64,000 nt of DNA from a virus (lineage: Duplodnaviria > Caudoviricetes): IMG/VR virus record IMGVR_UViG_3300033072_000683, positions 18,751 through 82,750 of that record. One strand, written 5' to 3'. A program made the translations under genes and the position numbers. A model generated the notes under the pieces. That model was not told where the DNA came from and searched no databases. It saw only the letters and a list, made by a program, of their open reading frames with translations. Positions within the stretch are counted from its first letter, which is position 1. The number at the start of each line of letters is the position of its first letter. Shown here in pieces: positions 28,652-64,000 of this stretch.

Positions 28652-28655
28652 TGCA

Positions 28656-28684
28656 TTGACTCGTGATACTCTTTATGTTACAAT
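28656..28684 (+). promoter_or_regulatory. sigma70-type promoter TTGACT-N17-TACAAT
   Basis: Near consensus, upstream of the exonuclease. Confidence 0.75.
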
Positions 28685-28690
28685 TCGTCA

Positions 28691-29356
28691 ATGCAGATAA
28701 TCAATAAGTTCGAATACAAACCACTTCAAAGGACAGAGGGAGAAGGAGGACGTCGCTACATTGTCGGCGAAGGTCGTCCCTTACCTAGTGTCACAACAAT
28801 TCTATCTAAAACCAAAGACATGACCCATATAAAAGAATGGGTTGCAAGAGTTGGTGAAGAAGAAGCAAACAAAATCAAGACAGAAGCCAGCGGTCTCGGC
28901 AATGGCATGCACAAGAATCTAGAAAACTATATTCTTGGCAATGAGATGGGTGGCTCGTTCATGGCTAAGACATTAGCCAATGTAATCATTAAGCATGGGT
29001 TGCCAAAGGTTAATGAAGTATGGGGCACAGAAGTTGCCTTATACGCTAAGGAACTCTATGCTGGCACAACCGACCTTATTGGTGTTCATGATGGTAAACC
29101 ATCTATCATGGACTTTAAGAATAGTCTCCGTGACAAGAAAAAAGAGTGGATCGAAGATTATTTCATGCAATTGGCTGCATATGCAATGGCCCATAACGAA
29201 ATGTATGGTACTGACATTAATCGAGGTGTTGTCATGATTGCAACACGAGAAGCTAAATATCAGGAATTCATTATCGAAGGGGACGAATTTACACATTATC
29301 AAAAGATGTGGGCTGAGAAATTATGCGTCTATTATGATCGATACGGTCGAGACTAA
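28691..29356 (+). CDS. PD-(D/E)XK exonuclease
   Basis: LPSVTTIL, GTTDLIG, IMDFK, QLAAY. Confidence 0.85.
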   Translation: MQIINKFEYKPLQRTEGEGGRRYIVGEGRPLPSVTTILSKTKDMTHIKEWVARVGEEEANKIKTEASGLGNGMHKNLENYILGNEMGGSFMAKTLANVIIKHGLPKVNEVWGTEVALYAKELYAGTTDLIGVHDGKPSIMDFKNSLRDKKKEWIEDYFMQLAAYAMAHNEMYGTDINRGVVMIATREAKYQEFIIEGDEFTHYQKMWAEKLCVYYDRYGRD

Positions 29357-29379
29357 ATAAGTTCACAGAGGGAAAGAAT

Positions 29380-30453
29380 ATGGCAGCACCAGTAGTAGTT
29401 TCAAGAATTCAAAATAGAAGAGGAACACAGGATCAATTTGAAGCATTGTATCCTGCTGAATACATCTCGGCCTCGGGGGCAAGTTCCTCAGGCGTCACTG
29501 TGACAGTTGCATCTACTGTCGGTGTTTATCAATATGCCAAGCCTTTTGTGCAGAGCGGAACAGGACAGTTTGCTCCAGGTACACAGGTTGTTTCTGTCGA
29601 CTCCCCTACACAATTCACTGTTAATCTTCCACCCGTTGTGCCTCTGTCTGGCGCAACAGTTAAAATTTCGAAGTATAACGGTACAGGCGGTTGCCCAATT
29701 TCTGAATATCCTAATATTCTCCTGACCGGTGAATTAGCATTATGCACTGACTCAAAGAGAATGTTTATGGGTAGCGTTAATGGCGAATACATTGAAATTT
29801 CTCCAGCATTTACTGATGGTATTTTCCTTTCGCCGCTAACTGTTACTTTGAATCCTACACCTACATATACAGTTATTCCTCAACTAACATATCAAGCAAC
29901 ACCATTTTTCAATTTGTTGTATGATATTACTGACGTTACAAGTCCGGACTGGAACGTAGTTGGCACAGGTTATTCACGTAGTGGAACTATGAAAATCACT
30001 GCAACAAATGATTTTGTTCCTATTCCTAATCCTCCCTTTCCGCCAATTACTTCTGTGAGTCTAGTCGACGACGGAGTAGATATTAATTTATATTCAATGA
30101 AGGCAGTTTTATCTGCTTCGGTTTCTTCAGGTGCGGTTTCCGGTATTACTGTAATTAGACCCGGCGCCGGATATTTCGGTCCTACACCAAATATTATTAT
30201 TGATCCGCCGCCGGCAGGAACTCAGGCCACAGCAGTACCTACCGTTTCCTCTGGCCAGGTCTCTTCAGTTGGTGTTACACTAGGTGGTTCGGGGTATTCG
30301 ACACCACCTAATGTATATATTGACCCACCGGTTGATATAAACATTAGCTTCACCGCAGCCTATAATGGTGCTAATATTGAAATTTCGTATAAGCACGATT
30401 TTCCGGGCACTCTTACACTAAGTTCAAGCACAATTCGTTGGTTACCTTTCTAA
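29380..30453 (+). CDS. virion structural protein (tail/baseplate-associated)
   Basis: IQNRRGT…LLTGELALCTDSKRMFMG head plus GAGY/GSGY repeats. Confidence 0.65.
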   Translation: MAAPVVVSRIQNRRGTQDQFEALYPAEYISASGASSSGVTVTVASTVGVYQYAKPFVQSGTGQFAPGTQVVSVDSPTQFTVNLPPVVPLSGATVKISKYNGTGGCPISEYPNILLTGELALCTDSKRMFMGSVNGEYIEISPAFTDGIFLSPLTVTLNPTPTYTVIPQLTYQATPFFNLLYDITDVTSPDWNVVGTGYSRSGTMKITATNDFVPIPNPPFPPITSVSLVDDGVDINLYSMKAVLSASVSSGAVSGITVIRPGAGYFGPTPNIIIDPPPAGTQATAVPTVSSGQVSSVGVTLGGSGYSTPPNVYIDPPVDINISFTAAYNGANIEISYKHDFPGTLTLSSSTIRWLPF

Positions 30454-30462
30454 GAGGATAAC

Positions 30463-30900
30463 ATGATTTGGAATGGAGTTTCTAATGAGGAACGCCTTCG
30501 TCTTTGGAAAAATCTAAGAAAAGATATCAAAGATGAGGATTTCCAACAACAGCTTTCAAGTATTGCCAAATTTTATGCGGCAATGCCTTTTGGTGCCAGG
30601 ACGCTAGACTATTACAGTCCTTCGGATTGGCCGACACCGTGGGAAATTTTATTTCACGGTACCTTTTGCAAAAGTTCGATAAGTCTTTTGATCTTCTACA
30701 CAGTCTTGATGGTTGCACCCAATCACAAGTTTGAAATTCATCTTGTTGACGATAATGGCGAAATTTATCTATTGCCGGTATTTGATGACCAGTTTGTTTT
30801 AAACTACGAGTTGGGTGTGGTAAGTAACTATCTAGATATTAAAAAAGATCTTCAAATTCTTCAAGTCTTCCCTCAGGGACGTATAAAAACAATTACATAG
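30463..30900 (+). CDS. hypothetical protein, transglutaminase-like/BTLCP-like fold possible
   Basis: DWPTPWEILFHGTFC resembles the BTLCP W-x-TP-x-E…GDC motif. Confidence 0.45.
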   Translation: MIWNGVSNEERLRLWKNLRKDIKDEDFQQQLSSIAKFYAAMPFGARTLDYYSPSDWPTPWEILFHGTFCKSSISLLIFYTVLMVAPNHKFEIHLVDDNGEIYLLPVFDDQFVLNYELGVVSNYLDIKKDLQILQVFPQGRIKTIT

Positions 30901-30913
30901 AGAGAAAAGTTAT

Positions 30914-34798: not shown

Positions 34799-34827
34799 TT
34801 GACAATCCGGCTAGGTGTTGCTAATAT
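34799..34827 (+). promoter_or_regulatory. sigma70-type promoter TTGACA-N17-TAATAT
   Basis: Near consensus. Confidence 0.7.
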
Positions 34828-34834
34828 AGCACTG

Positions 34835-35614
34835 ATGCCGGATTCTCACATGCGTAAGATTTTCAAAAGACTCTCCCACTGGTTACATTTCCAACCTCCT
34901 GGTGCGATGACATCAAAGGGGTGGAGACTCTTTAGAAAAGAGTTTCGTGAGAAAGCCCCTATACGTTATTGGATCACCAATGACTTTAGGCACAAGGTTA
35001 CACTTCCGATCCGTTGGAAATACGAGGCAGTGCGAGACTGGATTCGTTACCGTACATACGACAGATACCATGTGGTCAACACAGGATTACCTCCGGGATA
35101 TTACGGTGCGGAAAAGCAATTGTTGCATTCGAGCTTCAATATTCTAAAAGACTTTGTTGAAGTAGAATTAGCTTGGATGCACTATATGTGGTCCGATGAA
35201 AGAAAGAACGCAAGTTGGTGTGAAAAGCATCTTCCGTTCTATCGTTTCTTTAAACCTTTTCGCAGTCGCGAACACGGTCTAGCCCATTTGAATTGGGCTG
35301 CAACACTGGATGACCCAAATCTTCCACCGCACGAAAGATGTGATCATCAGGCAGTAAGTGCAAGAGAGATCAGAGAATTGTACCTCTGGTGGGTCGACAC
35401 AGTTCCTGCAAGAAAAGAAGTTGATGGCGGCACCTACGATCATCAAGGTTGTGATATGGGTCCTCTTGATGACGATTTTAATCACGATGCGGAAGACTAT
35501 AAGAAATTCCGCGAAGCAATGGACGCCAACGAAAAACTATCCGAAGAATGGAACGAAGAGGACACTCAGATGTTCATCCGTTTGGTAAAAGTCAGAGCAC
35601 ATCTATGGACATAA
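34835..35614 (+). CDS. hypothetical Trp-rich protein
   Basis: ORF 34799..35614; true start probably ATG 34835 or 34850. Confidence 0.6.
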   Translation: MPDSHMRKIFKRLSHWLHFQPPGAMTSKGWRLFRKEFREKAPIRYWITNDFRHKVTLPIRWKYEAVRDWIRYRTYDRYHVVNTGLPPGYYGAEKQLLHSSFNILKDFVEVELAWMHYMWSDERKNASWCEKHLPFYRFFKPFRSREHGLAHLNWAATLDDPNLPPHERCDHQAVSAREIRELYLWWVDTVPARKEVDGGTYDHQGCDMGPLDDDFNHDAEDYKKFREAMDANEKLSEEWNEEDTQMFIRLVKVRAHLWT

Positions 35615-38006: not shown

Positions 38007-38347
38007 AGATTCTAAAATTTATTGGTTGGTGGTGGACTAGTCTTGGCACCGTCAATCAATGGGGCATTGGTATATCGTCAACACTGGTGACGTCTCTTAT
38101 CGGAGCATTTCTTTTTGGTCCGAAATTTCTTCTGGCAATTCTATCTCTTGCGCTGATGTTCCTGTTTTGCATAATGATCTATGCAATTTATAGGCTGGTC
38201 GAACAGAAGTGGAGTGAGTACAATCAGTATCTTGATTCTGAGCAACAAGAGGTGGTAGATAGATTGCGCGGATATACAGGCGGTATAGATCCTCCCACTG
38301 CATCGGAGCTTCTTGCAAAAATTCGTAAGCGTCAAGGTAAAGTTTGA
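38003..38347 (+). CDS. two-TM membrane protein
   Basis: Two hydrophobic segments, basic C-terminus. Confidence 0.65.
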   Translation: MKILKFIGWWWTSLGTVNQWGIGISSTLVTSLIGAFLFGPKFLLAILSLALMFLFCIMIYAIYRLVEQKWSEYNQYLDSEQQEVVDRLRGYTGGIDPPTASELLAKIRKRQGKV

Positions 38348-38371
38348 CCTAAAACACACAAGCCTTACACT
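38344..38371 (+). promoter_or_regulatory. sigma70-type promoter TTGACC-N16-TACACT, followed by late-type CTAAATA
   Basis: Upstream of the NMNAT-Nudix gene. Confidence 0.6.
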
Positions 38372-38431
38372 AAAGGCTAAATACTTACAGCAGAGAGACT
38401 GCTAACTTCAATAACTATTTGGGAGCCAAAT

Positions 38432-39487
38432 ATGTCCAAACGATTCAAGAGGGCCATCCTCATTGGCCGATTCGAACCAGCCCACAACGGGCACCTCGCT
38501 AACTTCCTACAAGGCTTTGAGATTGCTGACGAAGTAATCATCCTTCTGGGTAGTTCTTTCCAACCTCGCACGCCCAAGAATCCTTTTACTTGGCAAGAAC
38601 GAGATGAAATGATTGCCGATGCTATCACTGCGGCAGCACCTGGGAAGGTGTTTTCAATTCTTCCGATTCCTGACTTCAAGTACAGCAACAATGCCTGGAT
38701 TGCTGAAGTTCAGCGAGTTGTTCGCGAGCATGAACCCGATATTGATGACAAGGATATTGCTATCCTTGGTTACGATAAGGATGATTCCAGTTGGTACAAC
38801 CATGCTTTCCCTGAGTGGACTTTTGTTCCGCTGAAGGGCTTTGTCGAATTCGGTTCCAAGCCGATTGACGCTACCAAGGTGCGTGAACTGTTCTTTGAAG
38901 GTCACCTCGATTTCATGCGCAGTGCCGTTCCGGAGCCTGTCTTCAAGTATATGCAGAATTGGGCCAAGACCCCTGCATACCAACAAATGGTGGAAGAATA
39001 TGTCTTCTACAAGGATTACCACAAGAAGTGGGATCCCGCTCCTTTTGTGCCTATCTTCCAGACTACTGACGCAGTGGTTATTCAAGGTGGTCACATTCTT
39101 CTTATCGAGCGAGGTCACTCGCCCGGTAAGGGACTTTGGGCACTGCCCGGTGGCTTCCTGAATCCTCGCGAGACTATCGAAGATTGCATGGTCCGCGAAC
39201 TGTTGGAAGAAACCAAAATCAAGGTCCCCGAGATTGTCCTGCGTAAATCGATTACCTATCACAAGGTCTTTGATCATCCGGATCGCGACCTGCGTGGTCG
39301 CACTATCACGCAGGCATATCTGGTTGAGCTGACCGGCGGTGACGGCAAGCTTCCAAAGGTGAAGGGAGCCGACGATGCCAAGAAAGCCGAATGGTTCAAA
39401 CTTTCCGAAATTGATACCATGGGCGAGATGATCTACGCAGATCACCAACACATTATCCAAACGCTGGTAGCCCGCGCAAGGAAGTGA
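38432..39487 (+). CDS. bifunctional NMN adenylyltransferase / ADP-ribose pyrophosphatase (NadM-Nudix, NatV-like)
   Basis: GRFEPAHNGH, RTPKNPF, Nudix box GGFLNPRET…RELLEET, DHQHII. Confidence 0.92.
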   Translation: MSKRFKRAILIGRFEPAHNGHLANFLQGFEIADEVIILLGSSFQPRTPKNPFTWQERDEMIADAITAAAPGKVFSILPIPDFKYSNNAWIAEVQRVVREHEPDIDDKDIAILGYDKDDSSWYNHAFPEWTFVPLKGFVEFGSKPIDATKVRELFFEGHLDFMRSAVPEPVFKYMQNWAKTPAYQQMVEEYVFYKDYHKKWDPAPFVPIFQTTDAVVIQGGHILLIERGHSPGKGLWALPGGFLNPRETIEDCMVRELLEETKIKVPEIVLRKSITYHKVFDHPDRDLRGRTITQAYLVELTGGDGKLPKVKGADDAKKAEWFKLSEIDTMGEMIYADHQHIIQTLVARARK

Positions 39488-40354: not shown

Positions 40355-41737
40355 ATGAAATTTGCAAAGAACATCATTCTCAACAGCGATAGTTACAAGT
40401 ACAGCCAGTGGGTGCAATATCCTATGGGCACCGAATACGTTTACTCGTACATCGAGTCCCGCGGCGGCGAATACGACAAGCTGGTTTTTATCGGCCTCCA
40501 AGCTTTCCTTCGTGAGTACATGACCACACCGGTTACCAAAGCAATGGTTGACCAGGCGGAAATGATTCTGAAGGCGCATGGTGAGCCGTTTAACCGCGAA
40601 GGTTGGGACTATATCGTGCGTGAGCACGGTGGCCGTCTCCCTGTCGAAATCAAGTCCGTGGACGAGGGTTCGGTAATGCGTCTGAAGAACGTGCTTGTTT
40701 CGATTGTCAACACTGATCCGAAGTGCTACTGGCTGACCAGCTTCTTGGAAACTGCCCTGCTTCGCGCAATCTGGTATCCTACCACTGTGTGCAGCAACAG
40801 CTACCATAGCAAGGAAATCATCCAAGAATTCCTGAACCGCAATGGCGATCCTTCGCTCATTGACTTCAAGTTGCATGATTTCGGTGCTCGCGGAGTGTCG
40901 AGCCTGGAAAGTGCTGCATTGGGTGGTATGGCACACCTGGTTAACTTCATGGGCACCGACACTGTGTCGGGAATCATGGCTGCGATGGAATACTACGACG
41001 CACAAGTCTGTGGTTTCAGCATTCCTGCCATGGAGCACAGTACCGTTACCAGCTGGGGTCGTGAGAACGAAGTTGAAGCATATCGCAACATGCTGAAGCA
41101 CTATGGTAAGCCTGGTGCCTTGCTTGCTTGCGTGAGCGACAGCTATGACATCTACAAGGCTTGCGAGAAGTGGGGAACTGAGCTGAAGCAGGAAGTGATC
41201 GATAGTGGCGCGGTGGTTGTTGTCCGTCCGGACAGCGGCGATCCTGTTCAAGTCGTGAACGATTGCCTGCGAATCCTTGATAAGCACTACGGCCACACTG
41301 TGAATGCCAAGGGCTACAAGGTGCTGAACAACGTTCGCATCATCCAAGGTGACGGTATCAATCATCAAATGATTCGTGCCATCCTGACGGTGATGGATCT
41401 GAACGGCTACAGCGCCGACAACGTAGCTTTCGGTCAAGGCGGTGCGCTGCTCCAACAAATCAACCGCGACACACTTCAGTTCGCTATGAAGTGCTCGGCC
41501 GCCAAGATTGCTGGTAAGTGGGTGGAAGTGTATAAGGATCCTGTTACGTCTTCGATGAAGAAGAGCAAGAAGGGCCGTTTGATGCTCGTCACCGGACCGA
41601 ATGGTGAATTTGTTACCAAGAACCTGGAATTTGGCACCGAAATCGATCTGCTGAAGACCCGCTTCATGGATGGCAAGCTCTACAACGAGACCACATTCGA
41701 TCAGGTTCGTGCGTTGGCTAAGGAGACTGTTCGCTAA
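40355..41737 (+). CDS. nadV: nicotinamide phosphoribosyltransferase
   Basis: SDSYKYSQ, HDFGARG, PAMEHS, SDSYD, RPDSGDP, IQGDG, FGQGGALLQ. Confidence 0.93.
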   Translation: MKFAKNIILNSDSYKYSQWVQYPMGTEYVYSYIESRGGEYDKLVFIGLQAFLREYMTTPVTKAMVDQAEMILKAHGEPFNREGWDYIVREHGGRLPVEIKSVDEGSVMRLKNVLVSIVNTDPKCYWLTSFLETALLRAIWYPTTVCSNSYHSKEIIQEFLNRNGDPSLIDFKLHDFGARGVSSLESAALGGMAHLVNFMGTDTVSGIMAAMEYYDAQVCGFSIPAMEHSTVTSWGRENEVEAYRNMLKHYGKPGALLACVSDSYDIYKACEKWGTELKQEVIDSGAVVVVRPDSGDPVQVVNDCLRILDKHYGHTVNAKGYKVLNNVRIIQGDGINHQMIRAILTVMDLNGYSADNVAFGQGGALLQQINRDTLQFAMKCSAAKIAGKWVEVYKDPVTSSMKKSKKGRLMLVTGPNGEFVTKNLEFGTEIDLLKTRFMDGKLYNETTFDQVRALAKETVR

Positions 41738-41761
41738 ATATCCCCGTGCAAACGGAGGATA
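41734..41761 (+). promoter_or_regulatory. late promoter CTAAATA overlapping an SD-sequestering GCAA-tetraloop hairpin
   Basis: TATCCCCGT-GCAA-ACGGAGGATA (one bulged A). Confidence 0.65.
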
Positions 41762-41763
41762 AC

Positions 41764-42858
41764 ATGACAAAAGTAGCAGTATTAGGTGCAGGACAAATCG
41801 GCAGAGCAGTTTACAAAATTCTAACTACACTGCGCGAGGAGTCCGACACCTATGATTTGGAAGCTTTTGTTGTTGATTCCAGACGAGACAGCATCTCTGA
41901 ACTGACATATGGGTCCCACTTTCTAGTGGACCTTATGGAAGTAGATGTAGCAGATTTGGTCAAACTATTGACCGAACAGAAGGTAACGCATGTCATAAAT
42001 GCGTTACCTTTCTTTTTGAATGAAAAAGCGGCATCTGCAGCCGCTCAGGCAAATTGCCATTATATTGACTTCACTGAAGATGATAAGATGGCAGATCGTG
42101 TTCAAGAAATCTTTAAAGGCAAAGGTCTTCATTGTGCTGTAAAATGTGGACTTGCACCGGGCTTTATCAACTATGTTGGATACAACCTAGTTGGCAAAAT
42201 TGATACACCTGACTCACTATTGATTAGCGTAGGTGCATTGCCGAGAATGGTTTCTTATGGCGCAAATGAACCAGAGCATTCGTATAATCTAACCTGGAGT
42301 GTGGATGGACTTGTCAACGAGTACATTCGTCCTTGCAGAATTAGAAGAAGGGGTGTAGAAGAGGAAGTTGCCCCTCTAACGGGACAAGTTAAGGTTGTTC
42401 TAGACGGAACTGAGTATGAAGCAGCCTACACTTCAGGCGGTGTGGGAAGTCTCGTCCGTGACCTTAAGGATGTTCCTAATGTCTGCTATATGACATTGAG
42501 ATATCCGGGCCATTACCGCTTTGTTAGGGGAGTGGTGCAGGATAAGCTAAACGACTTTGAGAAGATTAAGAAAGTTTTCTTAAAGAAGTTCCCATTCACT
42601 GATGACGATGTTATTGTGGTGTATGCTGACGCCCAAGGTGTCAATAATGGTCAACTGACAAGGAGATCATACTACAATAAGTTCTACGGTGTAGATGGTT
42701 TGACTGGAATTCAGGCAACAACCGCCGGCTCGGGAGTGGCTATGTTGGAATTAATGCTTACAGGAAAGGTAAACGGACTTGTAACACATTCTACAGTAAG
42801 CCTGGAAGAATTCTGTAATACAGAAGCCTTCAAACGATACTATAAGACCGGTAAGTGA
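41764..42858 (+). CDS. saccharopine/lysine-6-dehydrogenase family oxidoreductase
   Basis: VLGAGQIG, VINALPF, HYIDFT, CGLAPG, YNLTWSVDGLVNEY, TLRYPGH. Confidence 0.85.
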   Translation: MTKVAVLGAGQIGRAVYKILTTLREESDTYDLEAFVVDSRRDSISELTYGSHFLVDLMEVDVADLVKLLTEQKVTHVINALPFFLNEKAASAAAQANCHYIDFTEDDKMADRVQEIFKGKGLHCAVKCGLAPGFINYVGYNLVGKIDTPDSLLISVGALPRMVSYGANEPEHSYNLTWSVDGLVNEYIRPCRIRRRGVEEEVAPLTGQVKVVLDGTEYEAAYTSGGVGSLVRDLKDVPNVCYMTLRYPGHYRFVRGVVQDKLNDFEKIKKVFLKKFPFTDDDVIVVYADAQGVNNGQLTRRSYYNKFYGVDGLTGIQATTAGSGVAMLELMLTGKVNGLVTHSTVSLEEFCNTEAFKRYYKTGK

Positions 42859-44691: not shown

Positions 44692-44720
44692 TTGACATTT
44701 GACTTCACTTTGTATATAAT
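44692..44720 (+). promoter_or_regulatory. perfect sigma70 promoter TTGACA-N17-TATAAT
   Basis: Exact consensus; late-type CTAAATA follows at 44736. Confidence 0.85.
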
Positions 44721-44789
44721 GAACAAACTATTGGGCTAAATACTTTCCTGTTGGAATTTCCAATAGATACAATTTAGGAGAAAGTTACG

Positions 44790-45329
44790 ATGATAACAGC
44801 AAAACTTCTCCTTGCGTATCTTCTACAGACAGTTAATATCACCGGTGTAGACATAGACACCAGTAAGATCGATCTCGAACAGGCATACTGCCTAGCCAAG
44901 AACGTATATTACGAAGCAGGTGGAGAAGATATTCAAGGTCAATTTGCGGTTGCGTCAGTTACCCTAAATCGTGCTAATGATTCACGATTTCCTACTACAG
45001 TTTGTGATGTTGTCAAACAAACAACAATCTCGAATGTAAGTAAAAAGATTGTCTGTCAGTTCTCATGGTATTGCGAGGCAGATAAGAAGGGTAAGGATAT
45101 TCCTGTTAGAAACAAGGATGGCAGTATTAACCAATCAGTGGTTGATAGATTCCAGGTAGCAAGTATTGTTGCTATCACGGCCATGGCCGGAGAGGTTCCG
45201 GATGCTTCTGGCGGGGCAACCCACTTCCATAATCCTAGTGTTGTCAAACCAGCTTGGTCTAAGACACTGAAAAGGACTAAGCGTGTAGGCAACCACGATT
45301 TTTACAGATTGCCTCCTCCAACGGAGTAA
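44790..45329 (+). CDS. cell wall hydrolase, SleB/Hydrolase_2 family
   Basis: CLAKNVYYEAGGE, VASVTLNR, QFSW, GATHFH, VGNHDFY; hydrophobic N-terminus. Confidence 0.9.
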   Translation: MITAKLLLAYLLQTVNITGVDIDTSKIDLEQAYCLAKNVYYEAGGEDIQGQFAVASVTLNRANDSRFPTTVCDVVKQTTISNVSKKIVCQFSWYCEADKKGKDIPVRNKDGSINQSVVDRFQVASIVAITAMAGEVPDASGGATHFHNPSVVKPAWSKTLKRTKRVGNHDFYRLPPPTE

Positions 45330-45358: not shown

Positions 45359-45604
45359 ATGAGCAATTGGCGAAATGATCCCGGCATGATAAAGAGTGTC
45401 GTTTATAAGAGAAGATTTGCTTATCTTCCAACGACTTGTCTTTGTGGGACCAGGGTTTGGTTGAAATTTTATTACAAGCGATTTGAACTATGGAGTCATC
45501 GCACAAATAAGATTTTTGACGATTCGATAGATTTCCATAGCGACTACATTGGCAATATTACCGAAGAGGAATATGTAGTCAGAAAGTTGTCTGAAACGCT
45601 TTGA
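45359..45604 (+). CDS. small hypothetical protein
   Basis: 81-aa ORF. Confidence 0.55.
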   Translation: MSNWRNDPGMIKSVVYKRRFAYLPTTCLCGTRVWLKFYYKRFELWSHRTNKIFDDSIDFHSDYIGNITEEEYVVRKLSETL

Positions 45605-45629
45605 CTTTTTCATAACTATGCCGTAGCAT
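45601..45629 (+). promoter_or_regulatory. sigma70-type promoter TTGACT-N17-TAGCAT inside a hairpin
   Basis: Upstream of thyA. Confidence 0.65.
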
Positions 45630-45648
45630 AGTGAAAAGGACAAGGCGC

Positions 45649-46512
45649 ATGCAGAATTATATTGACCTCATAAAAGACGTACTAGAGAATGGTACAAATA
45701 AGCCCGACAGAACTGATGTCGGAGAATCAAGAGCCGTTTTTGGCCGCCTACTTCGCTGGGATCTAAGCGAAGGTTTCCCAATAATCACAACAAGAAAAGT
45801 TCCTCTGCGCATCGCATTTGAGGAAACAATGTTCTTCCTCCGTGGTGAGACAAACACCAAACTTCTTGAAGGAAAGAAAATTAATATCTGGAAGAAAAAC
45901 ACTACCAGAGAATTTCTTGACGGGCGTGGACTACATCATTTGCCTGAGGGCGACATGGGCAAAGGATATGGTTATCAATGGCGTCATTGGGAAACTGAAA
46001 ATAAAGAAACTGATCAAATTGCAGATCTTCTAACGGGTCTAAGAAAAGATCCGTTTGGTCGTCGCCATGTGGTCACAGGTTGGAATCCAGGGCAGCTGAA
46101 CCTGATGGCTCTTCCACCGTGCCACATGCTGCACATGTATTCCGTTGAGGGTAATTTTACCACCGATGGATGCAAACTGAATAACTGTTTCGTGATGCGT
46201 AGTAATGATGTTCCTTACGGTCTGCCATTCAACATCATGGGTTATGCACTTCTAAATCACATTTTTGCAAAGCACCTGGGACTTGAGCCGGGCGAACTTG
46301 TTTATATGGGATGGGATGTACACATTTATAAGAATCAAATCGAGATGTGTAAGGAGCTTGTTAAGCGCGAACCACGCCCACTACCTAAGCTAGTAATCAA
46401 GAAGGATTTGCCTACACTTCAAGATATCATGGACCTGCAATGGTCCGATATTGAGTTGATTGGATATGATCCTTATCCTGACTTTGCAGACAAACCGGAT
46501 ATGGCAACATAA
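45649..46512 (+). CDS. thyA: thymidylate synthase
   Basis: RRHVV.GWNP, LPPCH, RSND…GLPFN (Asn kept, dUMP-specific type). Confidence 0.93.
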   Translation: MQNYIDLIKDVLENGTNKPDRTDVGESRAVFGRLLRWDLSEGFPIITTRKVPLRIAFEETMFFLRGETNTKLLEGKKINIWKKNTTREFLDGRGLHHLPEGDMGKGYGYQWRHWETENKETDQIADLLTGLRKDPFGRRHVVTGWNPGQLNLMALPPCHMLHMYSVEGNFTTDGCKLNNCFVMRSNDVPYGLPFNIMGYALLNHIFAKHLGLEPGELVYMGWDVHIYKNQIEMCKELVKREPRPLPKLVIKKDLPTLQDIMDLQWSDIELIGYDPYPDFADKPDMAT

Positions 46513-46852: not shown

Positions 46853-46860
46853 GATAAATA
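46853..46860 (+). promoter_or_regulatory. late promoter GATAAATA
   Basis: Upstream of folE. Confidence 0.65.
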
Positions 46861-46922
46861 CTTTTGTCACACAACGGTGACAAATTTCAAAACTCAATAT
46901 CCGCGTTAGGAAGGATTCATAT

Positions 46923-50390: not shown

Positions 50391-51632
50391 ATGAGTGAAG
50401 ATACAGGCGTAAAGAAGATCATTAACTGCTCATTCTGCGGTAAAGGAAGGCACCAAGTAGAACAGATGATCGAGGGTCCTGTTCTTAATGGAAGCAATAT
50501 CTACATATGCAATGAATGTGTAGATGTAACATACGAAATTCTTCATACCGACGAGGATGAAGTAAAGACTCCGAAGAAAAAGAAAGAAAAAATTCTAACA
50601 CCGGAGCAAATTAAAGCTCATCTTGACGAATATATTATTTCACAGGATGATGCAAAGAAAGCAATTTCTGTTGCTGTCTATAATCATTATAAGCGCATCT
50701 TCAATAAAGACAAGAAAGATGCTACAGAAATTGAAAAATCAAATTTGTTGATGGTTGGACCTAGTGGTAGTGGCAAGACACTTACCATTAAGACAATTGC
50801 CAAACTGTTCGATCTACCTTATGTGATTGCTGATGCAACATCATTAACCGAAGCAGGATATGTGGGTGAGGATGTTGATAGTCTTGTAAAGAAACTTATC
50901 CACAATGCCGGCGACGATCTCGAAAGAGCACAGCACGGCATTATCTTTATCGACGAGATTGATAAGAAAAGTAAGAAGAATGAGTCTGCAACGGTAAGCC
51001 GTGATGTGTCGGGCGAAGGCGTTCAACAATCTTTACTAAAACTCATTGAAGGGACAGTATTAAAGATTGACGATGATATGGGCGATACCGTCGACTTTGA
51101 TACAAAAGACATCCTATTCATTTGCAGTGGTGCATTCGTCGGTCTAGACGATATCATAAGAAAGAACAGAAGCAAGACTGCTATCGGCATCAACGCCACA
51201 TTAAACACCAAAACCTCGTTTTCCCAAACAGTCAAATCGGCTACACCTGAAGACTTTATCAAATACGGTCTAATTCCTGAATTCGTTGGCCGTTGCCCTG
51301 TTGTAGTGGTGTTTGATGATCTAACAAATGATATGATTCTTCGTGTTCTAAAAGAGCCAAAGAACAGTATTGTCAGCCAGTTTAAGTCGCTTTTCAAATA
51401 TGAAGGCGTTACTTTGGACTTTGACGATAAATACCTACTGAATGTAGCTGACGAATGTCTGAAGCAGAAGATCGGTGCAAGAGGGTTGCGTGCGATTATG
51501 GAAAAGCATCTTCAGGAAACACAGTTTGTCCTACCAAGACTAGCAAAGGAAGGAGTCAACAAGATTTTTGTTGATGCAAATGGTACAATTAAACATGTTT
51601 ACAAGGCAAAGAAACGAGCACACAATGAGTAG
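50391..51632 (+). CDS. clpX: ClpX AAA+ unfoldase
   Basis: Zn domain CSFC…CNEC, GPSGSGKT, GYVG, DEID, RDVSGEGVQQ, GARGLR. Confidence 0.93.
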   Translation: MSEDTGVKKIINCSFCGKGRHQVEQMIEGPVLNGSNIYICNECVDVTYEILHTDEDEVKTPKKKKEKILTPEQIKAHLDEYIISQDDAKKAISVAVYNHYKRIFNKDKKDATEIEKSNLLMVGPSGSGKTLTIKTIAKLFDLPYVIADATSLTEAGYVGEDVDSLVKKLIHNAGDDLERAQHGIIFIDEIDKKSKKNESATVSRDVSGEGVQQSLLKLIEGTVLKIDDDMGDTVDFDTKDILFICSGAFVGLDDIIRKNRSKTAIGINATLNTKTSFSQTVKSATPEDFIKYGLIPEFVGRCPVVVVFDDLTNDMILRVLKEPKNSIVSQFKSLFKYEGVTLDFDDKYLLNVADECLKQKIGARGLRAIMEKHLQETQFVLPRLAKEGVNKIFVDANGTIKHVYKAKKRAHNE

Positions 51633-51882
51633 ATATAGAGATGGCAGAAAGCCGCGAGGCTTAACGGTTGAAGTCAGAAACGATGACTTCGGTAGAGCAC
51701 TACGTACTTTCAGTAAGAAAGTGCAAGATTCGGGAATCCTGAAAGAAGTAAGGGACCGAATGGCCTACGAACCACCTGCTGTTGAAAGGCAAAGACTCAA
51801 GAAGCAGGCTCGTAAGCGTTGGGAGCGCACAGTCGAAGAAATGATTGCCATGGGACATTGGCATAAAGACAAGCGTTACTAA
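51625..51882 (+). CDS. rpsU: ribosomal protein bS21
   Basis: VEVRNDDFGRALRTFSKKVQDSGILKEVRDRMAYEPP…KQARKR. Confidence 0.85.
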   Translation: MSRYRDGRKPRGLTVEVRNDDFGRALRTFSKKVQDSGILKEVRDRMAYEPPAVERQRLKKQARKRWERTVEEMIAMGHWHKDKRY

Positions 51883-51895
51883 TTTTGCAATATCG

Positions 51896-51938
51896 TTGAC
51901 TCTTGCACACAAGCCCGCTATAATGCGGGCTTTCGTTT
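51896..51938 (+). promoter_or_regulatory. sigma70 promoter TTGACT-N17-TATAAT whose -10 box is the loop of a terminator-like hairpin
   Basis: AAGCCCGC-TATAAT-GCGGGCTT-TCGTTT. Confidence 0.8.
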
Positions 51939-52106
51939 ATCCGAACTTGACTTTTGTAACAGAATGCATTACAGTACGATTATGCGCTGACACAGAGACA
52001 CTTGTAGTCTGGTGCATCGGACTACAAATGTTCGTCAGTTCTTTGTGTATATAAGCTAGATGGGCTAGTTTGGTACAACGAGTTTGATCAAATCAAGGAA
52101 AAACAA

Positions 52107-54614: not shown

Positions 54615-54649
54615 CATAAATATGCGAAACACAGGAGGTTTCGCATATG
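54615..54649 (+). promoter_or_regulatory. late promoter CATAAATA overlapping an 11-bp hairpin covering SD and ATG
   Basis: ATATGCGAAAC-ACAGGAG-GTTTCGCATAT. Confidence 0.8.
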
Positions 54650-56157: not shown

Positions 56158-56207
56158 TTGACTAAGGGCCCTGGGCAGTGTATAATTAAACATACACATG
56201 CCCAGGG
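56158..56207 (+). promoter_or_regulatory. sigma70 promoter TTGACT-N17-TATAAT inside a 15-bp inverted repeat
   Basis: CCCTGGGCA-GTGTAT…ATACAC-A-TGCCCAGGG. Confidence 0.8.
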
Positions 56208-56214
56208 ATTCAAT

Positions 56215-56520
56215 ATGCCAGACACACAAGTAATTGAGCGAATCGAGGAAAAAATCGAGGTTAAGCCTCCGATGATGTACAAGGTTCTCCTTCATAACGA
56301 TGACACCACTACCATGGACTTCGTTATGCATGTCCTTACAACAATTTTCCATCGTACCGCCGAAGAAGCAATTGAAGTAACCATGTTCATTCATCATAAT
56401 GGGCAAGGCATTGCTGGATCTCCATACACCAAAGAGATTGCCGAAGAGAAAACTCTGGAAACATTGAGCCTTGCTCGTGCTAACGGGTTCCCACTTGTAG
56501 CAACCTTTGAGGAACTATAA
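56215..56520 (+). CDS. clpS: N-degron adaptor ClpS
   Basis: PPMMYKVLLHNDDTTTMDFV, IHHNG, YTKEIAE. Confidence 0.92.
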   Translation: MPDTQVIERIEEKIEVKPPMMYKVLLHNDDTTTMDFVMHVLTTIFHRTAEEAIEVTMFIHHNGQGIAGSPYTKEIAEEKTLETLSLARANGFPLVATFEEL

Positions 56521-56521: not shown

Positions 56522-56548
56522 AATAAATATCTCGTAGATGATACGAGA
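56522..56548 (+). promoter_or_regulatory. late promoter AATAAATA abutting hairpin TCTCGTA-GATGA-TACGAGA
   Basis: Upstream of ATG 56554. Confidence 0.55.
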
Positions 56549-56553
56549 AATAG

Positions 56554-57600
56554 ATGTCTTCAAACTTAATCCCAATCAAATCCTTCCTAGGAAAATACTA
56601 CTCAGAAATTCTGTACTGCTGTCTACAAGACAAGTATAAAAATACAGGTCTGGAAAAATTTCTGGAGCAGCGTTTTACCATCCAAGGAAATAAGACACAA
56701 ATGATTGTGGATCCTGGTATGCAGGGTCTGGTCATGATTGTGTCCGGTAACGAAATTCACATCAGCAAGGAATTGTATGATCATCCTAATGTGATCATTG
56801 CAAATTCCCTTGAAAATCAGGATAGTCAACAGACAAATCCTAAGAGTCTCTATGAACCCGAGACATTTCAAACTCTTGCTTATCTAATCTGTCAAAATAT
56901 TACCACTCTTACCATTGTGGGTGAGATTGAAGAACCTATCTACGTTAGGTATAAGGCAGATTACGAAACCTTCTACAGCTCAATTGTTACTTTCGAACTC
57001 AACGACGAAGCAGAAGCCGAGATTGTTGAAGAAGTCGAAAGCTTCTCTGCGCTGAATGCGGTGACAAACTATATTCTTCACCCATTCTCGAAGCTAAAGC
57101 TAACTACATTCTATCAAAATAATATTGCCGGTATTTCTTTTCTCTACAGGAACATTTTTGCTAGAGAAAGGACAGAATTTACCCATGTTGTAATGGGTAG
57201 AGGATCGTCTGAGGTAATTGATGAAACTAAGATTAGGCACTCCAGTGCATCTAAATCTGAGTTCATGGGCATTATTAATTCTGCCGGTAGAAAATTTCAT
57301 TCCATTCTTGCAGTCGAGCCAGCTGCCCAGGATTACAACATCTCAGTCGATTATAGAAACATTCTATACGGCAGCAATCCGGATATTTCTTTCTTCCCGG
57401 TAATTCTTGGTCAGCAACCTGCTAATAATGGTGCGAATCTTGAGATTTCGAATATTTCACTTGACGATATTCCTCCCGATGTGAAAGATGCAGAGCTCAA
57501 GAATTATATCTCTCCAATTGTTGATAGAGCAATACTGGAGAGGATGGTAGGAGTGAAGAGGTTCTACGATAACAAGACAAAGTTCCTCCACTTTCCATAA
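56554..57600 (+). CDS. divergent SufD/SufBD-like beta-helix protein
   Basis: EPIYVRY…IVTFELNDEAEAEIVEE…NAVTNYIL spacing resembles the SufD core. Confidence 0.5.
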   Translation: MSSNLIPIKSFLGKYYSEILYCCLQDKYKNTGLEKFLEQRFTIQGNKTQMIVDPGMQGLVMIVSGNEIHISKELYDHPNVIIANSLENQDSQQTNPKSLYEPETFQTLAYLICQNITTLTIVGEIEEPIYVRYKADYETFYSSIVTFELNDEAEAEIVEEVESFSALNAVTNYILHPFSKLKLTTFYQNNIAGISFLYRNIFARERTEFTHVVMGRGSSEVIDETKIRHSSASKSEFMGIINSAGRKFHSILAVEPAAQDYNISVDYRNILYGSNPDISFFPVILGQQPANNGANLEISNISLDDIPPDVKDAELKNYISPIVDRAILERMVGVKRFYDNKTKFLHFP

Positions 57601-58125: not shown

Positions 58126-58317
58126 ATGGAAAAAGAAGAAGAAAAAAGTGTAATATGCCAGTGGATTGGGGAAGGCGAAGGATGCAGACATCCTGCTATG
58201 TACAATAAATCCTACTGCGAAGTACACCATGACAGAATGTATGTAGTCATGCCACCCGAGATGGCAGACTACATTATCGAGAAGGAGCTTAAATCAGATT
58301 TGCATAATGCCGATTGA
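58126..58317 (+). CDS. small Cys/His protein resembling the GcrA C-terminal domain
   Basis: CQW…C…YCEVHH…Y. Confidence 0.55.
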   Translation: MEKEEEKSVICQWIGEGEGCRHPAMYNKSYCEVHHDRMYVVMPPEMADYIIEKELKSDLHNAD

Positions 58318-58342
58318 CATGTCCGTCATCATTTAATATACT
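58314..58342 (+). promoter_or_regulatory. sigma70-type promoter TTGACA-N17-TATACT
   Basis: Upstream of DNA ligase. Confidence 0.78.
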
Positions 58343-58362
58343 ATTGATTACAAAGGACACAT

Positions 58363-59739
58363 ATGAACATTCTGCAAATTCTTGATCACCTTGGTTCCGA
58401 TACAAAGCGCGGCCACAAACTGGCTGTGCTGGAACAACACAAGGATAATGAACTCTTCATGCGTGTCGTGAAGTTGGCGCTTGATCCTTATGTCAACTTT
58501 TACATTAAGAAGATTCCGGATCACACTTTCCGGTTCCTCGAAGGAGAAGGCGATGCACACAAGACCCTCGACTGGGCACTGGATGCACTATCCAAGCTCT
58601 CGACTAGAGAACTCACTGGTAACGCAGCTATTGAGCATCTTTCTAACGTGCTTAGTGAGCTTTCCACTGATGACGCTACTGTTATTAAGCGCATTATTGG
58701 TAAAGATCTGCGCTGTGGTGTGGCGGATGGTATCGTCAATGCTGTCGTAGCAGACTTCATTCCCACCTACCCATGTCTCCTTGCTCGTCCCTACGACGAG
58801 AAGAACATCAAGAACATCAAATTCCCGGCATTTAGCCAATTGAAGGCCGACGGCCTGCGAGCCAATGCATTGGTTGAGGCTGGAAAAGTTACACTTTGCG
58901 GACGCAGTGGTCGAGATATCGATCTGCTCGGTGAGTTGGACAGGGATGTTCTGCTCCTTGCTGAACAATATGGCAAGGTTGATATGTTCTTTGACGGTGA
59001 ATTTGTGGTTGTTGATGCAAACGAGAACATCATTGATCGCAAAACCGGCAATGGTATTATCAACAAGGCTATTAAGGGAACAATCAGCAAAGAAGAAGCG
59101 GCTCGAATTCGTTTCCAAGTGTGGGATGCCTTCCCGCTTGCTGAATTCTACAAGCTCAAATCTAGGCACAATTACGATGTTCGCTTTAATGCGCTCATCG
59201 GTGCAATGAACAACGTCAAGAAGGGTGTAGATACTACTGCACACATTCTGACTCACGGCCCTTTCCGTATCCGTCCTATTCCATACAAGATTGTGAATAG
59301 CCTGACGGAGGCTGTGGAGCATTTCGAGTTGCTCCTTAGCCAAAGTCACGAAGGCACCATCCTTAAGAATTACGAAGCAGTCTGGGAAGACACGCGAAGT
59401 AAGCATCTGGTAAAGATGAAAGCTGAGAAAGATTGTGATCTTGAAATCATTGGTTGGAACCCCGGCACCGGTCAATTCGAAGGCATGGTGGGCAGTCTTG
59501 TCTGCGCAAGTTCCGACAGACTCGTTGAAGTTTCCATTAGTGGCTTTGATGTGCCCACTCGAAAGTGGATTACCGATAACATCGACAGCCTGATTGGCAA
59601 AATTGTGACTGTGCTGTATAATGAGCGCATTAAGAGTAAGGAAAAGGGTCGCGAGAACGTTGATTCATTGTTCCTTCCTCGTTATGTGGAGTTCCGCAAC
59701 GACAAAACCGTTGCAAATAGCAGCAAGGAAATCAAATGA
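58363..59739 (+). CDS. ATP-dependent DNA ligase (T4 gp30-like)
   Basis: QLKADG, FDGEF, VWDAF, EGTILK, KMKAE, FLPRY. Confidence 0.93.
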   Translation: MNILQILDHLGSDTKRGHKLAVLEQHKDNELFMRVVKLALDPYVNFYIKKIPDHTFRFLEGEGDAHKTLDWALDALSKLSTRELTGNAAIEHLSNVLSELSTDDATVIKRIIGKDLRCGVADGIVNAVVADFIPTYPCLLARPYDEKNIKNIKFPAFSQLKADGLRANALVEAGKVTLCGRSGRDIDLLGELDRDVLLLAEQYGKVDMFFDGEFVVVDANENIIDRKTGNGIINKAIKGTISKEEAARIRFQVWDAFPLAEFYKLKSRHNYDVRFNALIGAMNNVKKGVDTTAHILTHGPFRIRPIPYKIVNSLTEAVEHFELLLSQSHEGTILKNYEAVWEDTRSKHLVKMKAEKDCDLEIIGWNPGTGQFEGMVGSLVCASSDRLVEVSISGFDVPTRKWITDNIDSLIGKIVTVLYNERIKSKEKGRENVDSLFLPRYVEFRNDKTVANSSKEIK

Positions 59740-61179: not shown

Positions 61180-61206
61180 AGTATATTGAATACTAGGGGT
61201 TTCTAA

Positions 61207-61785: not shown

Positions 61786-61794
61786 GAGCCAGCA

Positions 61795-63204
61795 ATGGAT
61801 CAAAGAGACGAATTTAGCAAATGGTTAGGAGCAGTTGAAGAAGCACTTAGATCAGAAGGTCAGGTTGTTGAAGATGTTCCGCCTGTAACAAATGAATGTG
61901 GTTGTGGATCATGGGATTGCCCTGTCTGCTTCCCAGATCAAAATGAAATGCCGGGAATGCACGGTGCCCTAGACGGACTCGGAGGCGCAAATGTTGCAGC
62001 TGACCCAATGGCCATGGCAATGCCTATGGATCCTATGGCGCAAATGGGCGGTATGCCGCAAGTTTGCGCATCTTGCGGTGGTTCGCTAGATGACGGACAC
62101 ATGCACGAGCCTAACGTGGTTGTTGGCGGTATTGACGGACTCGAAGAAGTGTCTCCAATGGACGACGATATGGGTGCAGACGAAATGATGCAAGCCCCAA
62201 TGGAAGAAGAACCCATGGAAGCACCGGGAGAATCTCTACCACGTTCCAGCGACGGTAGAGGCGTAAAGCTTGGTGACATTGTTCAACATACCGAATATAG
62301 AAAGGTTGGGCAAGATTCCCCACTAACTCACGGCGAAGATAATCTTTCCGAAGTTGATGAGTTCGGAATGGACGATGAAGAACCAGATTGGGATGCAGAT
62401 CCTATGGCGGTTAGAGATTATCACAATACTATGGCAGGTTCTCCACAATCCGAGGGAGATGTTGAAGCTGCCCTAGATATGATTTCTACCATCAAGTATA
62501 TGCAGCAAATGGGGTTGAGCAAAGCATCTCGTGATTATTCAGAACAAGAAATGGCAAATATGGGTCTGCCTCAATTGAAGCAGGTTCATCAAGAAGTAAC
62601 CGGTACAATGGCAGAGGAACGTATTATGAACATGGAAAATGTTGACCCAGATGTAGCAGCAATGCTCAAAACACTTCAAGGCTACGATAAAATGGTAGCT
62701 GAGAGCAAGAAAAAGAAGCCTGACTTTAAGGATGTAGATAAGGACGGCGATAAGAAGGAACCTTGGACAAAGGCCGAGAAGGATAAGAAGGAAGTCGACG
62801 AAGCAACTCGAGTTCTTGGAAAGGGAGGTTTCCCAGCAAACCAAAGTGAACGTGATGCTCTTGCAAAGGACGCTAAGTCTGGTAAGGCTCAGGTAGCAAA
62901 GAATGTTCCTGGAAAGATTGACATGCCGGGTTCGGGTAAGGGTGTTAAGGACTACGATCCTTTCAGTGAATCAGTTAATGAGTCCGACGACGACAAGAAT
63001 CCTTGGGAAAAGAAAGCAGACGCTAAGAAAGACGGCGACAAGGTTACCAAGACTCATAAGGGTGGAACTGTTACAAAGACTGATACCGGTCTAGTACACA
63101 AGAGCGCCAAGTACGGAAACCAAAAGGACGAAGTTAAGGAATCTGCTGAAGTAGATCCAGAAGTCCTAGAATGGATGGCACGTCTAGCTAAGGTTGCAAG
63201 ATAA
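61795..63204 (+). CDS. acidic low-complexity head/internal protein
   Basis: 469 aa, VAES/VNES/VKES sites, D/K-rich repeats. Confidence 0.6.
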   Translation: MDQRDEFSKWLGAVEEALRSEGQVVEDVPPVTNECGCGSWDCPVCFPDQNEMPGMHGALDGLGGANVAADPMAMAMPMDPMAQMGGMPQVCASCGGSLDDGHMHEPNVVVGGIDGLEEVSPMDDDMGADEMMQAPMEEEPMEAPGESLPRSSDGRGVKLGDIVQHTEYRKVGQDSPLTHGEDNLSEVDEFGMDDEEPDWDADPMAVRDYHNTMAGSPQSEGDVEAALDMISTIKYMQQMGLSKASRDYSEQEMANMGLPQLKQVHQEVTGTMAEERIMNMENVDPDVAAMLKTLQGYDKMVAESKKKKPDFKDVDKDGDKKEPWTKAEKDKKEVDEATRVLGKGGFPANQSERDALAKDAKSGKAQVAKNVPGKIDMPGSGKGVKDYDPFSESVNESDDDKNPWEKKADAKKDGDKVTKTHKGGTVTKTDTGLVHKSAKYGNQKDEVKESAEVDPEVLEWMARLAKVAR

Positions 63205-63404
63205 TGAAAATTACTGAAGTAGCATCAAAAGATATTCTAGCTGAATTATCTACCGAATTACTTGGTAGATATAAAACTGCCGCAGGGGCTGATGCTCGTG
63301 CAGCCGATAAGCAAGGAGATTATGCTACCGGTAATAAGCGTTTTAGTGGAATTGTGAAGGCAACAAAGAAGCAGTTCGACAACGACGCTAAGAAAAGAAA
63401 ATAA
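63204..63404 (+). CDS. small basic head-associated protein
   Basis: MKITEV start, LAELSTELLGRY module. Confidence 0.6.
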   Translation: MKITEVASKDILAELSTELLGRYKTAAGADARAADKQGDYATGNKRFSGIVKATKKQFDNDAKKRK

Positions 63405-63426
63405 GCCAGTTTTTTCTCCAGAAAAC

Positions 63427-63471
63427 TTGACCCTCCTGTAAGTAATAGTTATACTGTTATTTACGTAGGGT
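63427..63471 (+). promoter_or_regulatory. sigma70 promoter TTGACC-N17-TATACT inside a long hairpin covering the SD
   Basis: GTAAGTAATAG/CTGTTATTTAC plus ACCCT/AGGGT. Confidence 0.78.
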
Positions 63472-63476
63472 TTCTT

Positions 63477-64000
63477 ATGAACCGCAAAGAAGAATTTTTA
63501 CAAAAATGTTTGGTACTGGACACAGAAACCAACTCTGATGATTACAAAATTGCCGAAATTGTCGAATCTGGCTTTGTAATTAGAGAAAACGAAGATTGGA
63601 CAATTTTCCAAGAGCTTCACAAACCTATCGATCGTCCAATTCCACCGAAAGTTGAATCTATCTGCTATATCACAAACGAAATGGTAGCAGACAAGGAACC
63701 GTTTATTGACAACCGAGAAGTATTTCAGGCAGTTGTTGACGGTTACTCCGATGGATTCCTAGTAGCACACAATCATTTCTTTGATATGCGTGTACTAGGT
63801 AATCACGGTATTGATACAAATAACCATACCTGGATCTGCACATGGAGAATGGCAAAGAAGCTATTCAATGGAGTCGCAGAAGTCGAGGAAACAAATCTCC
63901 CATATCTGCGTTTTGCACTCAAACTTGATGTGCCTATTGAAATGTTGTGCCACCGCGCAGGCAACGACTCTTTCATGACTGGCAGATTGCTAGAATTCTT
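63477..64000 (+). CDS. DEDDh 3'-5' exonuclease (DnaQ/ExoX-like), truncated by window end
   Basis: LDTET, VAHNHFFD, CHRAGND by hand translation. Confidence 0.88.
   Translation, partial: MNRKEEFLQKCLVLDTETNSDDYKIAEIVESGFVIRENEDWTIFQELHKPIDRPIPPKVESICYITNEMVADKEPFIDNREVFQAVVDGYSDGFLVAHNHFFDMRVLGNHGIDTNNHTWICTWRMAKKLFNGVAEVEETNLPYLRFALKLDVPIEMLCHRAGNDSFMTGRLLEF

Follow-up and report, generated by a model that had tools for sequence, protein, structure and literature searches.

The DNA considered here raises the question of whether a hairpin built around a promoter can decide which of the RNAs covering a gene is translated. The stretch, which we call the window (64,000 nucleotides (nt), positions 18,751 to 82,750 of the IMG/VR record IMGVR_UViG_3300033072_000683), is the final 64 kb of an 82,750-base virus record, a fragment of an uncultured jumbo phage in which nearly all genes are on the + strand. 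An earlier note on this DNA listed 12 inverted repeats at promoters, all of which are present, and read them as a window-wide system for early as well as late genes. We found that the hairpins at about eight genes of the region are a real, conserved, RNA-level feature, but that this feature does not extend to the whole window and that the phage is not the only one to have it. In our judgement, the probable explanation is that a subset of genes carries a promoter-gated translational lock of the type of T4 e, soc, 49 and I-TevI, with the gene's own promoter as the key.

The sigma70-like set comprises the 11 intergenic promoters of the window, each of which we folded from the -35 hexamer to the ATG; the z scores of the sigma70-type sites compare the fold with 300 dinucleotide shuffles. 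Strong hairpins centred on the -10 hexamer were found at five of them (g221, g254, thyA, clpS and exo, the DNA polymerase exonuclease-subunit gene; z -3.7 to -4.6), and at all five the Shine-Dalgarno sequence (SD) or the AUG lies in the right arm, as the earlier note had described. The clpS hairpin, with a minimum free energy (MFE) of -27.1 kcal/mol, is the most stable 50-nt fold of the whole window, and at g221 the -35 region pairs with the ATG-containing GTCAATG. A raw MFE scan of the window, which gave 193 windows, mostly GC-rich coding sequence, serves for ranking only. Besides the five strong hairpins, two short ones and a weak one were counted among the 11 promoters, which makes the statement that most sigma70-type promoters sit in hairpins barely fair. 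In the same folds, the sigma70-like promoters at 4957, 44692 and 51947 have no such hairpin.

The same layout is found at three promoters of another class. TAAATA can reasonably be taken for a candidate T4-like late promoter; relatives of the phage have the motif and encode a gp55-type late sigma factor (phrog_12791, E value 4.7e-78). On the + strand of the contig the hexamer occurs 47 times, and in 23 cases a called gene start follows within 60 nt (27 after restoring starts misplaced by automatic refinement). The three TAAATA promoters with the layout belong to sdh (saccharopine-dehydrogenase-like), the caspase-like protease gene and g348; their folds are significant and hold the SD or AUG, and the layout is kept in orthologues. 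When folds are set against shuffled controls, the hairpins of the eight genes score z -3.7 to -7.7 (Table 1).

We expressed the effect of each hairpin as ddG, the extra cost (kcal/mol) of single-stranding positions -14 to +4 around the start codon in a long RNA compared with the RNA from the gene's own promoter. The long RNA was taken from -120, the own-promoter RNA was assumed to begin 7 nt downstream of the -10 hexamer or 6 nt downstream of TAAATA, and the gene starts used were hand-checked. Every + strand gene of the contig was scored in this way, with promoter-less genes cut at a mock start 25 nt upstream. At g221, g254, thyA, clpS, exo, sdh, caspase and g348, ddG is 8-14 kcal/mol. The enrichment extends to the promoter classes as a whole, with a median ddG of 5.95 for sigma70-headed genes (n=12) versus 0.55 for promoter-less ones (n=62; Mann-Whitney p=7e-5), and with a difference between TAAATA-headed genes and the promoter-less background as well (p = 0.005). 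As a control, the same pipeline recovers T4 e (ddG 13.9) and I-TevII (10.1).

Across the phage family, the base-pair centres at 464 unique promoter-like sites peak sharply on the -10 hexamer, with 2.5-2.7 expected pairs per 4-nt bin versus about 1.1 in shifted windows. Sites with at least nine -10-centred pairs number 130, compared with 54 after flank shuffling and 33-41 off-centre. A looser measure of pairs centred on the -10 hardly distinguished real from shuffled sequences, and a stricter version was then used.

Table 1. Promoter-associated hairpins and related features of the window (window positions; lock, ddG of at least 5 kcal/mol in the orthologue's own fold)
Gene or element	Position	Strand	Layout	Hairpin	z	ddG	Lock in orthologues
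clpS	56158-56217	+	TTGACT-N17-TATAAT; left arm in spacer; right arm TGCCCAGGG covers SD, then ATG at 56215	56169-56207	-4.3	13.8	85% of 34
exo (DNA polymerase exonuclease subunit)	63427-63479	+	TTGACC-N17-TATACT inside ~17-bp hairpin; SD in right arm	63430-63471	-4.4	8.5	76% of 17
thyA	45601-45651	+	TTGACT-N17-TAGCAT; arms CTTTTTCA/TGAAAAGG plus CTATGC/GCATAG; SD AAAGGA in right arm	45605-45639	-4.6	12.3	90% of 10
g254 (function unknown)	34799-34852	+	TTGACA-N17-TAATAT inside ATCCGGC.../...GCCGGAT hairpin	34805-34843	-3.8	13.7	9/9
g221 (PD-(D/E)XK-type exonuclease)	28653-28693	+	leaderless; ATG 6 nt after -10 TACAAT	28654-28693	-3.7	10.0	
sdh (saccharopine-dehydrogenase-like)	41735-41766	+	TAAATA overlaps NAMPT stop codon; SD within hairpin TATCCCCG/CGGAGGATA	41739-41761	-4.6	9.9	67% of 9
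caspase-like protease gene	54617-54649	+	TAAATA overlaps left arm of 11-bp hairpin; SD in loop, AUG in right arm	54620-54648	-7.7	11.0	88% of 8
g348	56524-56556	+	TAAATA, then directly 7-bp hairpin TCTCGTA/TACGAGA; SD in right arm	56530-56548	-3.9	7.9	79% of 29
DNA ligase	58314-58365	+	TTGACA-N17-TATACT; two weak helices: inner stem with -10 as loop, outer TGTCC/GGACA touching SD	58320-58359	-0.3	3.0	54% of 26
intrinsic terminator	51896-51938	+	8-bp GC-rich stem and T tract behind S21-like gene; sigma70-like TATAAT is the loop	51911-51932	-4.9		
nadR (NMNAT-Nudix)	38344-38384	+	sigma70-like; -10 TACACT is the loop of AGCCTT/AAGGCT; right arm abuts TAAATA at 38378	38361-38378	-4.3	0.6	0% of 19
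cell-wall hydrolase gene	44692-44792	+	perfect sigma70 promoter, then TAAATA (44737), then hairpin	44742-44785	-2.1	1.1	

IMG/VR holds many syntenic relatives of the phage, four of them complete (362-385 kb, with terminal repeats), and conservation was followed gene by gene. Each orthologue was scored by its own fold, because MAFFT/RNAalifold, run on the whole clpS and exo regions, could align no more than the outer stem, the inner stems being variable in length. In clpS, exo, thyA, g254, caspase and g348 the lock is retained in orthologues at 55-90% protein identity. Upstream of clpS, all relatives with the promoter motif TTGAC-N17-TAnnnT also have the hairpin, with the left arm in the spacer, a right arm that ends in a GGGGA-type SD, and arms that co-vary; exo, g254, thyA, caspase and g348 resemble clpS in having the hairpin at the promoter and arms that change together in relatives. 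The SD in the right arm is of the GGAG type in the exo relatives, and the stem sequences of the thyA orthologues differ. Whole stems are replaced in L006, L035, L040 and L075: the clpS arms of L006 and L035 are entirely different in sequence, and the inner stem of g254 is wholly swapped in L040, L042 and L075, some relatives being leaderless at this gene. At g221, L049 and L090 have a layout identical to that in the window.

The compensatory changes that one would look for in related phages were found at clpS, caspase and g348, in counts above both shuffled and slid controls. Six of the seven outer pairs of clpS show compensatory change, which 0/500 shuffles reach; for caspase it is 5/11 pairs, reached by 1/500 shuffles, and for g348 the covariation is reached by 0/500, although these counts come from related sequences and so are not probabilities. 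In all three genes, pairing collapses once the partner column is slid. In contrast to the high lock shares of these families, a ddG of at least 5 is found in only 0-8% of the orthologues of the promoter-bearing genes nadR, hydrolase, g223, g109 and g136. The feature is therefore gene-specific and inherited, and the observation behind the term window-wide is real, but with about eight genes concerned the term itself was overstated.

Because the arms surround a promoter, a role of the DNA itself has to be weighed: cruciforms or single-strand hairpins could tune the promoter with supercoiling or replication, or the repeats could be operators for dimeric repressors. The pair centres do fall exactly on the -10 hexamer, which is itself the loop in several cases. 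However, this geometry results from short 5' leaders together with fixed -35 and -10 hexamers, and the sequence of the arms changes from promoter to promoter and from orthologue to orthologue, which leaves no common protein site. The earlier note had argued from G-U pairs for RNA rather than DNA, and the larger sample bears this out. In a DNA palindrome or operator, G.T and A.C mismatches are expected equally often, but in 146 -10-centred hairpins the sense strand has 159 interior G.U pairs versus 11 A.C. Folds of the opposite strand have 80 G.U and 33 A.C; in 103/145 cases it is the sense strand that folds more stably. The comparison of + and - strand MFE over 106-nt windows was uninformative, as a 1.5 kcal offset is present everywhere. 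Given the sense-strand excess of G.U pairs, we consider the feature to be one of RNA, and a DNA-level role to be hardly credible.

Relative to the hairpin, the promoter motifs keep a fixed register, both in the window and in orthologues, and motif and hairpin are lost together. Where the promoter motif is absent from a clpS, exo or thyA orthologue, the hairpin is absent too, and a canonical terminator takes its place in some promoter-less orthologues; with a degenerate -35, as in three orthologues, the hairpin is retained. The two arms are co-transcribed only in RNA that comes from upstream, so it must be in read-through RNA that the selected function is exerted.

This argument depends on transcription starting inside the hairpin. 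The distances between the -10 hexamer and the ATG peak sharply at exactly 6 nt, a value seen at 42/464 unique promoter sites in 11 orthologous groups. The mRNAs of these 42 sites are leaderless, their first base being the A of the ATG, and the start site was therefore set 7 nt downstream of the -10. The phage family has many leaderless genes, with g221 (28679-28693) as the case in the window and others in L049, L090, L037, L039, L046 and L127. If the true starts were instead upstream, the hairpins would be present in all transcripts and would be constitutive repressors opened in trans, for example by a helicase, by S21-modified ribosomes, by temperature or by a small RNA. The phage does encode a homologue of ribosomal protein S21, and internal SD hairpins exist in other leaders of the window, such as those of nadR and g223. 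We nevertheless consider upstream starts very unlikely, since dozens of orthologues have 10-12/12 matches to the sigma70 consensus at a fixed hairpin register that are lost together with the hairpin, and since the leaderless spacing peak shows that the motifs are used as promoters.

With predicted starts of this kind, the promoter-gated lock would work as follows. At a sigma70-type promoter, the DNA between the -35 and the -10 is complementary to the SD/AUG region about 25-40 nt downstream; at a late promoter, TAAATA and the following 5-10 bases take this part. Presumed read-through RNA entering from the upstream gene would hold both arms, with no terminator between, and fold into a hairpin of 7-18 bp, so that the ribosome site is buried. 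Transcripts of the gene's own promoter would start in the loop or the right arm and, lacking the left arm, would have an open ribosome site. At clpS, thyA, g254, exo, g348 and sdh, we detected no terminator-like site in the stretch from the upstream stop codon to the hairpin. Elsewhere the window does have canonical terminators, GC-rich and with T tracts, and these are different in appearance. Read-through RNA left untranslated by such a block may in turn fall prey to Rho or nucleases.

A likely use of the lock would be the temporal separation of early-type and late-type genes (classes that we assign provisionally, from promoter type) that are interleaved on one strand, and leaderless genes, with the ATG 6 nt after the -10, might achieve the same end by another route. 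In the window, the sigma70-headed genes that follow a late-headed unit all have a lock or no leader (g221, thyA, clpS, exo) or, in the case of ligase, a partial lock, a pattern that fits temporal insulation but is no proof of it. The main strand of the complete relative G001 has 49 sigma70-type and 45 TAAATA-type promoter-gene pairs, and locks occur there at 12/21 junctions with a change of promoter class versus 14/63 without (Fisher one-sided p = 0.004).

Promoter-gated translation, as proposed for all of the listed sites, is supported at the eight genes named above and not at the hairpins 51911-51932, 38361-38378 and 44742-44785. The first of these was identified by a terminator scan as an ordinary terminator; that its loop is TATAAT was confirmed, and a function as a translation gate was ruled out by the T tract, by the lack of an open reading frame (ORF) close behind and by the lack of conservation in relatives. 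The gene before it, the S21 homologue (51574-51882, + strand; phrog_21469, E value 1e-12), overlaps the end of the ClpX-like gene.

At nadR, the hairpin never touches the ribosome-binding site (RBS); it ends at the predicted start of the early transcript, 50 nt before the SD. Its stem covaries in close relatives (CTTTA/TAAAG to CTCTA/TAGAG). The nadR leader further contains, at 38389-38434, a hairpin with a conserved loop motif (AGAGAC / GATAGAC) and a stem that covaries down to 37% protein identity, followed by a second part, an SD hairpin that also covaries; neither has an Rfam match. A comparable arrangement at a late-type promoter was noted at 6169-6191, where an 8-bp GC-rich hairpin (z -6.3) before the gene at 6215 has TAAATA as its loop and does not reach the SD.

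The hydrolase hairpin, whose z score is marginal, had been proposed as an SD lock, but only 8% of 24 relatives keep the outer stem's pairing with the SD, and we rejected the T4-lysozyme-like reading of this gene as a conserved feature. What these relatives do conserve is the inner stem alone, which is placed where the late RNA is predicted to begin. Conserved, covarying stem-loops of this kind lie at 44748-44770 in the hydrolase gene and at 46855-46890 in g223 (loop ACAANGG), in each case at the predicted 5' end of a late transcript, and both look like 5' stabilising hairpins rather than RBS locks. The ligase site, described as weak in the earlier note, is weak indeed and is not significant alone; in its relatives the short stem with the -10 in the loop covaries, and the family median ddG is 5.6. 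Two of the sigma70-like promoters without a hairpin are each followed by about 110 nt without an ORF. At 51947-52087 this segment has a stable hairpin and a T-rich end, and relatives keep the promoter and a GCACTAACACA-type start, so it may be a small RNA. At 4946-5099 it follows TTGACA-N17-TACATT and precedes the gene at 5100, and may be a structured leader or a small RNA.

Several results weigh against the lock. Only about 5/12 sigma70-headed and 4-7/25 TAAATA-headed genes of the contig have one, and in G001 about 30% of each promoter class reaches a ddG of at least 5. The junction test in G001 loses strength when leaderless genes are left out (p = 0.035) and a rank test is not significant, so the link of locks with early/late junctions is only suggestive there. 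T4 soc, a known case, scored a ddG of only 1.7, which means that the pipeline is conservative and that some true cases are missed. The -10-in-loop hairpins at nadR, and partly at ligase, covary without covering the RBS, and some promoter hairpins must therefore serve another role. The exo hairpin has a U-rich tail, with TTTCTT at this place in most relatives, and may thus also terminate in part. Finally, the left arm lies directly after the upstream stop codon at thyA and 2 nt after it at sdh (the NAMPT stop) and g221.

The exo tail bears on the possibility that the hairpins serve the upstream transcript, as a weak terminator, a pause site, a 3'-end stabiliser or an RNase III-type processing site, with SD masking a by-product of short intergenic space. 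The hairpin at 51911-51932 would fit, being a textbook terminator with the -10 as its loop, as would those at nadR and 6169-6191, whose loops hold a promoter motif and which leave the RBS untouched although they are stable and either conserved or highly significant. Against this, clpS, thyA, g254, caspase, g348 and sdh have no U tract, and their stems are longer and more AU-rich than those of the canonical terminators of the window. In these six families the right arm always holds the SD or AUG, whatever the stem sequence, and the promoter-less orthologues have no hairpin, some with a canonical terminator in its place. We thus regard service to the upstream transcript as unlikely to be what these hairpins are for.

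The position of the left arms at thyA, sdh and g221 bears on translational coupling, in which a ribosome finishing the upstream gene would melt the left arm and thereby open the downstream RBS even in read-through RNA, whose translation would then be tied to that of the upstream gene. These three left arms are inside the ~11-nt reach of a terminating ribosome, the distance at g254 is borderline, and promoter-less genes with overlapping stop and start codons (-384, 17768, 19177) show similar ddG. At clpS, exo, caspase and g348, however, the left arm is 9-26 nt beyond the stop codon, and farther in relatives, which is out of reach. Coupling would also leave unexplained why the promoter is always inside the hairpin and why the two are lost jointly. 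We judge coupling improbable as the explanation, but given where the left arms lie it is a live rival at thyA, sdh and g221.

The promoter-gated lock remains the reading that we favour for the eight genes. One could go further and suppose that the temporal programme is enforced largely at translation, so that genes following a unit of the other class, on a strand with few terminators, would be insulated by a lock or by being leaderless and would be translated from their own promoter's RNA alone, in both temporal directions, in a general "translational insulator" grammar possibly helped by the phage S21. We offer this extension tentatively and think it rather doubtful.

Genes identified in or near the finding encode ribonucleotide reductase, the NMNAT-Nudix enzyme (nadR), NAMPT, the saccharopine-dehydrogenase-like protein (sdh), the cell-wall hydrolase, thymidylate synthase (thyA), a ClpX-like ATPase, the ribosomal protein S21 homologue, the caspase-like protease, Hsp20, ClpS, DNA and RNA ligases, and the DNA polymerase exonuclease subunit (exo). 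The g221 product matches the phrog_298 exonuclease. Nucleotide searches of GenBank phages found nothing close, only distant jumbo phages, and Rfam and tRNA scans of the window gave no matches.

If the lock operates as proposed, giant phages can pack differently timed genes head-to-tail on one strand without terminators, and a few complementary bases in a promoter spacer would silence the translation of read-through RNA. The way in which temporal classes are inferred from phage transcriptomes would change, as the presence of an RNA would not imply the protein. The T4 lysozyme paradigm would widen from a few late genes to host-polymerase promoters, including those of T4 regB and denV, and the hairpins would supply synthetic operons with insulator parts that are compact and portable. 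The covarying families of clpS, exo, thyA, caspase and g348 are a natural mutant series for testing these ideas.

In T4 e, soc, 49 and I-TevI, the SD or AUG is sequestered in early read-through RNA, and late promoters lie in the DNA for the 5' strand of the hairpin (Uzan and Miller 2010, PMC3014915). The genes described here are like these, and like I-TevII and Aeh1 mobE, in that a hairpin buries the SD or AUG and the gene's own promoter occupies its left arm or its loop; caspase, g348 and sdh have the very layout that T4 49 and I-TevII show when folded with the same script. In contrast, all published cases have a gp55-dependent late promoter, whereas g221, g254, thyA, clpS and exo have -35/-10 promoters, so that at these five best cases the gate would favour the early or host-polymerase phase and not the late one. 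The arrangement is also denser than in T4, with about 8-9 locked genes in 35 kb, and the phage, only distantly related, has about 365 kb and carries nearly all its genes on a single strand.

The early-gene version had been thought an extension peculiar to this phage, but T4 itself turned out to have it. When two stretches of T4 were folded (L181, T4 1-50000; L186, T4 50001-76000), the same pipeline found -10-centred hairpins burying the SD at the early genes regB (ddG 13.1), denV (7.5), nrdC.8 (13.2) and e.8 (7.8). The spacer pairs with the SD exactly as at clpS, thyA and exo, although the genes differ and there is no sequence relation. About 5/31 sigma70-headed genes are concerned in the 76 kb examined, versus 5/12 in the contig. 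The T4 reviews consulted make no mention of the sigma70 version at these four genes.

A sigma70 promoter inside the element is also a feature of IS10/IS50 fold-back inhibition, reportedly described by Davis, Simons and Kleckner in 1985, in which RNA from outside is said to carry an extra 5' segment that pairs with the transposase RBS, a segment that RNA from the transposase gene's own promoter does not have. Unlike the arrangement here, that system protects a transposon and concerns a single gene, with no temporal programme. Compared with intrinsic terminators that overlap the next promoter, 51911-51932 fits fully and exo partly, while the other hairpins have no U tract or GC-rich stem base and always include the RBS. 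The proposed promoter-gated translation of this phage thus belongs to the known T4 kind and is no new system, although it involves both promoter classes and the genes concerned lie close together.

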